DNA of 64,000 bases from Klebsiella phage RCIP0102. Below, one piece after another: positions 26,822 to 27,463 of the stretch. The notes under the pieces were generated by a model. It was not told the DNA's origin and searched no databases. It saw nothing but the letters and a program-made list of their open reading frames with translations. The DNA is taken from the sequence record OR532896.1; one strand, written 5' to 3'. Within the stretch, counting starts at the first letter, position 1, and each line of letters starts with the position of its first letter. The position numbers and the translations under genes were made by a program.

Positions 26822-27101
26822 AATATTTTTCTTCTGGTTGAAACACTGAACGACACGCCCACATTGAGGCTTCCTTCAGGTGCTGAATAGCATTGCGAAT
26901 TTGAGTAATACGCTCATGTGCTAAATCAAATTCTTTGTCGCTCATTGTGCTAACATCTAAATTCATGTATTTTTCAACATGCTCTTCTTCTAATGCTTTA
27001 AAAATTAATCCAAGACGAATTTCCGCGTCTTTGATAGCATTTACTTTACCAATCTTTTCATCGGTATGTGGCTTATATCCTTTGATATCTTCAATTGCCA
27101 T
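26820..27101 (-). CDS. hypothetical protein
   Basis: 93-aa ORF. Confidence 0.45.
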   Translation of the reverse strand: MAIEDIKGYKPHTDEKIGKVNAIKDAEIRLGLIFKALEEEHVEKYMNLDVSTMSDKEFDLAHERITQIRNAIQHLKEASMWACRSVFQPEEKY

Positions 27102-27463
27102 TATAGTGCCTCTGTGAAAGTACGAGCGATAACGTCGCGCTGCTGTTCCGGAGTCAGGGAGTTGAAGCGTACCGCATAGCCGGAAACACGAATGGTCAGC
27201 TGCGGATATTTTTCCGGATGCTCAACCGCGTCCAGCAGAGTTTCACGACGCAGCACGTTCACGTTCAGGTGCTGACCGCCTTCAATTTTTACCGCTGGCT
27301 GGTATTCAATTTCTACTTCACGCGCCTTGTAGCCATAAAAAGTTTCAGCATCCGTAATAGTATCTTCTTTAAGAACTTTTGAAACGATTACTCGTGCGTC
27401 ATCGCCATCTTCGATGTAAATGGTGCCTTTAAGTTCACCTTCAAGAATTTGATATGCTTTCAT
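27101..27463 (-). CDS. grcA: GrcA/YfiD-like autonomous glycyl-radical cofactor
   Basis: 120 aa; C-terminal 60 aa [56 protein letters not shown] is essentially the E. coli GrcA C-terminus; 3' half of the gene is markedly GC-rich. Confidence 0.85.

Follow-up and report, generated by a model that had tools for sequence, protein, structure and literature searches.

Klebsiella grcA-type sequence in the 3' half of vs.6, a glycyl-radical cofactor gene of the T4-like phage RCIP0102

Genes and features at the vs.6 locus

We analysed 64,000 nucleotides of Klebsiella phage RCIP0102 (record OR532896.1; this whole stretch is referred to below as the window), which are DNA of a T4-like Klebsiella phage of the genus Jiaodavirus. 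The gene under study is the syntenic ortholog of T4 vs.6, whose product is called Y06I (Table 1). The two proteins are equal in length and identical at 98 of 120 residues (82%), and the neighbourhood is arranged as in T4, with the e lysozyme gene upstream, an ORF in the vs.7 position, and the Acb2/vs.4 and RegB genes downstream. Both copies lie in the e-denV-vs-regB early region, both join an AT-rich 5' half to a host-like 3' half, and both end in a TAATG overlap, which is absent from host grcA. In T4, vs.5 sits between vs.6 and vs.4, whereas RCIP0102 has no vs.5. The DNA of vs.6 is 100% identical to the copy in phage pzk-kv4. A promoter and terminator scan of positions 26200-28900 returned fewer promoter-like sites than shuffled sequences did, and no interpretable signal.

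The gene is not new, being already known as T4 vs.6/Y06I. The RefSeq name 'autonomous glycyl radical cofactor GrcA' is carried by both JD18 gp106 and T4 vs.6 (NP_049730), and Y06I is one of the two spare-part proteins that were validated in 2001. The gene is conserved across the T4-like phages; in 2006 it was listed among 11 ORFs of unknown function kept in all T4-like genomes compared (PMC1524935).

Table 1. Positions of vs.6, its parts and other features of the window
Feature	Position	Strand	Basis or remark
vs.6/Y06I-type autonomous glycyl radical cofactor (phage GrcA) CDS	27101..27463	minus	ORF, 120 aa, ATG start
5' block, codons 1-60, phage-specific AT-rich N-terminal half	27284..27463	minus	GC 0.38, GC3 0.27
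Core, codons 61 to about 113, with the entire glycyl-radical loop; Klebsiella grcA type, host-derived	27126..27283	minus	nucleotide identity, GC
3' tail, last ~7 codons (...FTEAL), phage-specific; right-hand edge of the putative converted tract	27104..27125	minus	alignment
RVSGY motif of vs.6	27176-27190	minus	motif location
Gly95 codon, predicted radical glycine in RVSGYAV (= PflB G734)	27179..27181	minus	motif and PflB/GrcA alignment
Shine-Dalgarno GAGG	27468..27471	minus	4 nt 5' of the vs.6 ATG, read from the sequence
TAATG stop/start overlap, vs.6 coupled to the downstream Acb2 (vs.4-like) gene	27099..27103	minus	sequence and ORFs
Acb2/Tad1 hairpin-domain gene (T4 vs.4-like anti-CBASS sponge)	26820-27101	minus	PF24729, 6.3e-16; ATG overlaps the vs.6 stop
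NrdG-like radical-SAM activase	4856-5326	minus	
NrdD, radical loop RTCGY	5503-7341	minus	
Endonuclease VII	7338-7811	minus	
Minor GC island	13179-13381		peak 0.525 in 160-nt windows
16-gene tRNA cluster	35813-40333	minus	

In profile and structure searches, the protein matched the Pfam Gly_radical family over residues 61-101 (E = 4.9e-18) and phrog_1209 over its full length (residues 1-120 against 1-121, 2.7e-60). Its best PDB match was 6owr, E. coli GrcA (1e-39), and residues 57-119 aligned to residues 696-758 of PflB (phmmer against 1h16/1cm5, 1.8e-27). The protein thus has the features by which GrcA/YfiD is recognised (TIGR04365, IPR011140): it is small and stand-alone, with a C-terminal RVSGYAV domain, homology to the PflB C-terminus and homology to GrcA in its N-terminal part. 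Its score of 147.9 bits fell below the 170-bit cut-off of the NCBIfam GrcA equivalog (TIGR04365). So did the score of T4 Y06I (151.1 bits), although that protein has been validated biochemically; Klebsiella GrcA reached 228. The model is tuned to the bacterial GrcA, with the phage proteins forming a diverged sub-branch.

The two halves of the protein relate to bacterial GrcA very differently. From E61 onwards, 57 of 60 residues are identical to E. coli GrcA (the differences being L77/E, E81/K and A119/S) and 59 of 60 to Klebsiella GrcA, whereas a protein-guided alignment of the N-terminal 60 residues gave only 12 identities with Klebsiella GrcA. The near-exact match of the C-terminal 60 residues to E. 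coli GrcA, including the RVSGYAV loop, and the divergence of the N-terminal part had both been pointed out in the preliminary description of this DNA, and both hold. The N-terminal half is nevertheless homologous: when the N-terminal halves alone of 11 phage and 11 bacterial proteins were compared with hhalign, they aligned over their full length (probability 97.5%, E = 8.8e-12, 25% identity). The whole gene is therefore best regarded as an old copy of grcA, of which, by sequence, apparently only the 3' core has been kept, or made, host-like.

Compared with bacterial GrcA (YfiD; NMR structure 6OWR), the phage protein has the same stand-alone form of about 14 kDa and nearly the same C-terminal domain. 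In contrast, its N-terminal half lacks 7 residues relative to the bacterial one and shares only about 20-25% identity with it, the 5' half of the gene follows phage codon usage, and the gene is located in a lytic phage. The C-terminal domain of PflB (~696-759; PDB 1H16, 2PFL), which is the domain that the spare part replaces, has an identical loop; however, vs.6 lacks the catalytic barrel of PflB, and the residues flanking its loop are of the GrcA type.

Base composition and source of the 3' core

The GC content of 100-nt windows at 27100-27299 was 53-55%, against about 33-45% in the flanks. The maximum of the entire 64 kb was found in the 160-nt window starting at 27120 (0.575, z = 4.2), so that the GC-rich 3' half noticed in the preliminary description turned out to be the highest peak of all. 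The GC content of the core block was attained by only 0.01% of windows in the 64 kb and lies above even that of the tRNA cluster, which is the source of the other GC peaks. Within vs.6, GC3 rose from 0.27 in the 5' half to 0.58 in the 3' half; because the shift is at third codon positions, amino-acid composition does not explain it. The minor GC island listed in Table 1 contains neither tRNA nor grcA, and megablast gave no bacterial match for it.

The change in composition was mirrored by the nucleotide identities. The 5' block was 41% identical to K. pneumoniae grcA as against 71% to T4, while the 3' half was 94.2-95.2% identical to grcA of K. pneumoniae and 92.5-93.5% identical to that of K. 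aerogenes. Within the core, 152 of 158 nucleotides agreed with K. pneumoniae grcA (6 mismatches), and 155 of 158 (98.1%) agreed with two Klebsiella alleles from gut metagenomes, L203 and L206. The last 22 nt of the gene, in contrast, had 8-9 mismatches to every Klebsiella grcA, and this tail was common to all Jiaodavirus copies examined. When the whole window was searched with megablast against PLSDB, which includes complete K. pneumoniae and E. coli chromosomes, the sole bacterial match was at 27117-27283.

The grcA sequences of K. pneumoniae and K. aerogenes were taken from chromosomes that are mis-filed in PLSDB as plasmids; CP125156.1 and LR134122.1 (loci L095 and L096) are whole or partial Klebsiella chromosomes carrying a plasmid label. 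In the record of K. aerogenes NCTC10006, a 1-nt indel, likely a long-read assembly error, frameshifts grcA, and it was removed before comparison. A contig scan of genomes provided 80 Enterobacterales grcA genes, with K. pneumoniae proper absent from this set. The L203 and L206 contigs were found by a degenerate-pattern scan of metagenomes, and over about 1 kb they share 99.4% identity with a genome in which GrcA carries the name K. variicola at NCBI.

With E. coli grcA, the identity was 89.1% and was limited to nucleotides 179-353 of the gene. E. coli was therefore rejected as the donor, given the 94-98% identity to Klebsiella grcA. The preliminary description had proposed a recent recombination with the host grcA, for which more than 90% nucleotide identity to an enterobacterial grcA was to be expected; the host-derived 3' half and the expected identity stand, but the donor type is Klebsiella and not E. 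coli. By nucleotide identity, the donor of the core appears to be a Klebsiella grcA of the K. pneumoniae/variicola group. Among the bacterial alleles compared, none was identical to the RCIP0102 core, the best having 3 mismatches, and the base of RCIP0102 at block position 39 was matched by no Klebsiella allele seen. Some mutation after the transfer, or a patchwork of transfers, would thus be needed.

Homology to the C-terminus of PflB is also visible in blastn matches, and several database records call the phage gene 'pyruvate formate-lyase'; we therefore considered whether host pflB or tdcE, at its 3' end, might have supplied the block instead. The 3' half of vs.6 was, however, only 81-83% identical to pflB, the diagnostic residues are of the GrcA type and not of the PflB type (MNREMLLDAMEN, TKEQQQDVIT), and homology to GrcA extends into the N-terminal half. 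A pflB or tdcE source is thus extremely unlikely.

An abrupt break in both GC content and identity within a gene of 363 nt also resembles a chimeric join, as would arise from misassembly or from contamination with host DNA. Yet the same in-frame architecture, with phage-specific 5' half and 3' tail and the coupling to the following gene, was shared by over 130 Jiaodavirus genomes that had been sequenced independently and by over 600 E. coli T-even phages including T4, and the block was never 100% host across its flanks, which leaves an artefact with a probability close to nil.

Host alleles in Jiaodavirus and in other T-even lineages

Within Jiaodavirus, the core differs between phages in a way that points to the host alleles. 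A metagenomic Jiaodavirus contig of 166 kb, L184, had a core identical to K. pneumoniae grcA at all 158 positions; phage KPV15 agreed with it at 157 of 158, and phage Merci at 132 of 132 over the first part. RCIP0102 differs from the L184-type core at block positions 24, 39, 45, 108, 126 and 132, and five of these six are the same sites, with the same bases, that separate the K. pneumoniae and L206 host alleles (hypergeometric P about 5e-5 over 52 third-codon positions). The eight Jiaodavirus copies formed a graded mosaic series. Among the overlap tests, significance was limited to this pairwise comparison of haplotypes: for the eight Jiaodavirus copies and five host alleles taken together, the overlap of phage-variable and host-variable sites was not significant (P = 0.13). 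We therefore hold the claim to at least two donors within Jiaodavirus, with no count of events. The type of allele did not correlate cleanly with the isolation host, as the exact RCIP0102 allele was found in phages from both K. variicola and K. pneumoniae.

The preliminary description had also suggested looking at related phages, and homologs of vs.6 were found in about 1,590 phage records, with host-type blocks in T4, RB69 and Jiaodavirus. The block was identical to E. coli grcA at 179 of 183 positions in T4 and at 177 of 183 in RB69 (176-179 of 183 across comparisons). In 629 records of Escherichia/Shigella phages it was 95-99% identical to the E. coli block. At least 90% identity to the K. 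pneumoniae block was found in 137 records, with Klebsiella Jiaodavirus phages at the top. The informative sites of a quartet of sequences grouped RCIP0102 with K. pneumoniae and T4 with E. coli in a ratio of 14:0:0.

The synonymous distances followed the same pattern. In the 3' block, dS was 0.07 between T4 and E. coli and 0.27-0.34 between RCIP0102 and Klebsiella, compared with 0.58 between RCIP0102 and E. coli. Between the two phages RCIP0102 and T4, the 3' block gave a dS of 0.70 and the 5' block one of 1.6; the corresponding values for T4 and RB69 were 0.10 and 0.39.

These values bear on the simplest alternative, a single ancient capture of grcA followed by no further exchange, in which host-likeness would be maintained by purifying selection and codon preferences. 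The C-terminal domain is indeed nearly invariant in protein sequence across Enterobacterales, and grcA is strongly expressed and biased in its codon usage. The protein sequence, however, does not force the DNA sequence, because the Slopekvirus phi1_146054 encodes the same 60 residues (dN 0) with saturated synonymous sites (pS 0.82 against K. pneumoniae) and a GC3 of 0.38. Likewise, Cronobacter phage leB had a pS of 0.67, and the vs.6 homolog of the Karamvirus KaAlpha had a GC3 of 0.22. Moreover, the phage blocks clustered with the allele of their own host and not with each other, T4 and RB69 were more distant from each other in the 5' than in the 3' block while both remained within 2-3% of E. 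coli grcA, and the L184 core equals the K. pneumoniae sequence throughout. Both the quartet and the dS values contradict a single capture, which we regard as highly unlikely.

Taken together, the sequence comparisons indicate that vs.6, a gene conserved among these phages, has repeatedly undergone gene conversion by host sequence. High identity is not generic, and host tracking is also not universal, as follows from a control with the Salmonella grcA block, for which there were no phage records at 95% or above and only 3 at 90-95%. The homologs in Karamvirus, Slopekvirus, Pseudotevenvirus, Krischvirus, T5-like and jumbo phages were 72-84% identical to any grcA and had no jump in GC3. We consider it likely that, in the strictly lytic T-even phages, gene conversion from host to phage keeps recurring at vs.6 as a standing hotspot, and that each lineage would repeatedly take up the grcA allele of its current host, so that the block would record the recent host and keep the spare part matched to PflB/PflA. 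This reading, likely as a whole, predicts E. coli-type alleles in Tequatrovirus and Mosigvirus, and K. pneumoniae-type and K. variicola-type alleles in different Jiaodavirus isolates.

Some of the more distant homologs carry signatures of a host type at the protein level. Phage phi1_146054 (locus L089, 301-663) has the Klebsiella-type signature TLLDAVEH and phage leB (L090, 301-663) the E. coli-type TLEDAVKH, while the DNA of both is synonymously saturated with respect to every grcA (pS 0.67-0.82). These signatures could be due to an older conversion or to convergent selection. In addition, an IMG/VR contig of 19 kb (L130) contains a GrcA-like gene at 301-639. Its 3' block shares 91% identity with Yersinia grcA, which might reflect a further case of host tracking or else host DNA in the contig.

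Proposed function and history of vs.6

According to PMC8683613, which cites Wagner (2001), both T4 Y06I and E. coli YfiD are activated by the PFL activase (PFL-AE) and restore PFL that has been cleaved by O2. By orthology with T4 Y06I, host PflA would place a glycyl radical on Gly95 of the phage protein of 13-14 kDa. The activated protein would then dock on the O2-cleaved host pyruvate formate-lyase and replace its lost C-terminal radical domain. In this way the conversion of pyruvate to acetyl-CoA and formate, and hence the supply of ATP, might be maintained after the phage has shut off the host, which would be unable to make new PflB or GrcA.

Besides host PFL, another partner had been put forward in the preliminary description, namely that vs.6 could serve as a spare part for the phage NrdD, or be activated by the phage NrdG. 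The window does encode NrdD and an NrdG-like activase, as was noted there (Table 1). Cleavage by O2 affects all glycyl radical enzymes alike, and spare parts for others of them have been speculated upon (PMC8683613). The rescue of NrdD and the activation by NrdG nevertheless found no support in our comparisons. BLASTP of the vs.6 protein against NrdD of RCIP0102 gave E = 7.9 with the radical loop left unaligned, and the loops differ, RVSGYAV in vs.6 against RTCGYLG in NrdD. The radical domain of vs.6, in turn, matches host GrcA at 59 of 60 residues and aligns to the PflB C-terminus, and the partners shown for T4 Y06I are PFL-AE and cleaved PFL (Wagner 2001, as given in PMC8683613). That the block follows the grcA allele of the host also fits a partner supplied by the host, not one encoded by the phage. 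We thus judge a role as an NrdD spare part to be very unlikely, and a PFL spare part remains our reading of the function.

Very probably, then, vs.6 is the Jiaodavirus version of the Y06I-type PFL spare part, its function being assigned through orthology with T4, and its 3' core has been overwritten by Klebsiella grcA through gene conversion. In the history we propose, the 5' half of an old grcA copy would have drifted to phage composition, while in the core the phage sequence would have been replaced, through homologous recombination, by that of the grcA on the chromosome of a Klebsiella host. Fragments of host grcA may pair with the phage block, being about 85% or more identical to it, and then be copied in, as general T4 recombination biology suggests; a UvsX-type phage recombination with host DNA fragments would be the probable route, as judged from general T4 genetics. 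Other T-even lineages would have undergone independent replacements by the alleles of their own hosts, and for this reason the block would track the host.

The edges of the block are compatible with this history. The left edge, at codon 61, is the same in T4 and RCIP0102, and the phage and host sequences beyond it may be too different to pair. On the right, the putative tract of RCIP0102, which is of the Klebsiella type, ends about 22 nt before the stop codon, upstream of the TAATG overlap, whereas the E. coli-type block of T4 reaches to about 6 nt before the stop. Since host grcA has no TAATG coupling, the converted tract would have to end upstream of the overlap. Given that the protein sequence of the radical domain hardly varies across Enterobacterales, the similarity of the DNA would never decay enough to stop recombination, and this may explain why vs.6 holds the only such patch in the 64 kb.

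A literature search, conducted largely outside the subscription journals, returned no description of a conversion of vs.6 by host grcA. What the window contributes is a clean and quantifiable case in which one half of a gene in a lytic phage, the functional one, appears to be continually refreshed from the host chromosome. Intragenic recombination between host and phage copies has reportedly been described for psbA of cyanophages, likewise an auxiliary metabolic gene of lytic phages with mosaics of GC content and identity. The present case differs from it in the gene, the hosts and the phage group, in the confinement of the exchange to 158-176 nt of a very small gene, and in that the alleles of vs.6 follow the genus or species of the host. 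The gene also offers a tractable setting in which homologous recombination from host to phage could be measured, both in nature and in the laboratory.

There is also a practical side to the host-like block. In a 2026 study, grcA was selected as the marker gene for Straboviridae in qPCR (PMC12845203). Primers placed inside the 3' block would also amplify the chromosomal grcA of E. coli or Klebsiella, and false positives from host DNA are possible, the 3' block being 95-99% identical to E. coli chromosomal grcA.

The sequence of the block further suggests itself as a marker of the natural host that a T-even phage has recently had, and in this respect it may be a better guide than the isolation strain. 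Two phages named after Salmonella have blocks contrary to their named host: that of PSE-D1 (ON550260) is of the K. pneumoniae type (97.1%), and that of Lv5cm (MZ150757) is 97.3% identical to the E. coli block. A Hafnia phage (MW749000) was 83.6% identical to the Salmonella block, equal to the E. coli T-evens, and Yersinia phage ZN18 (MN716856) resembles the E. coli T-evens at the protein level (82.5% aa).
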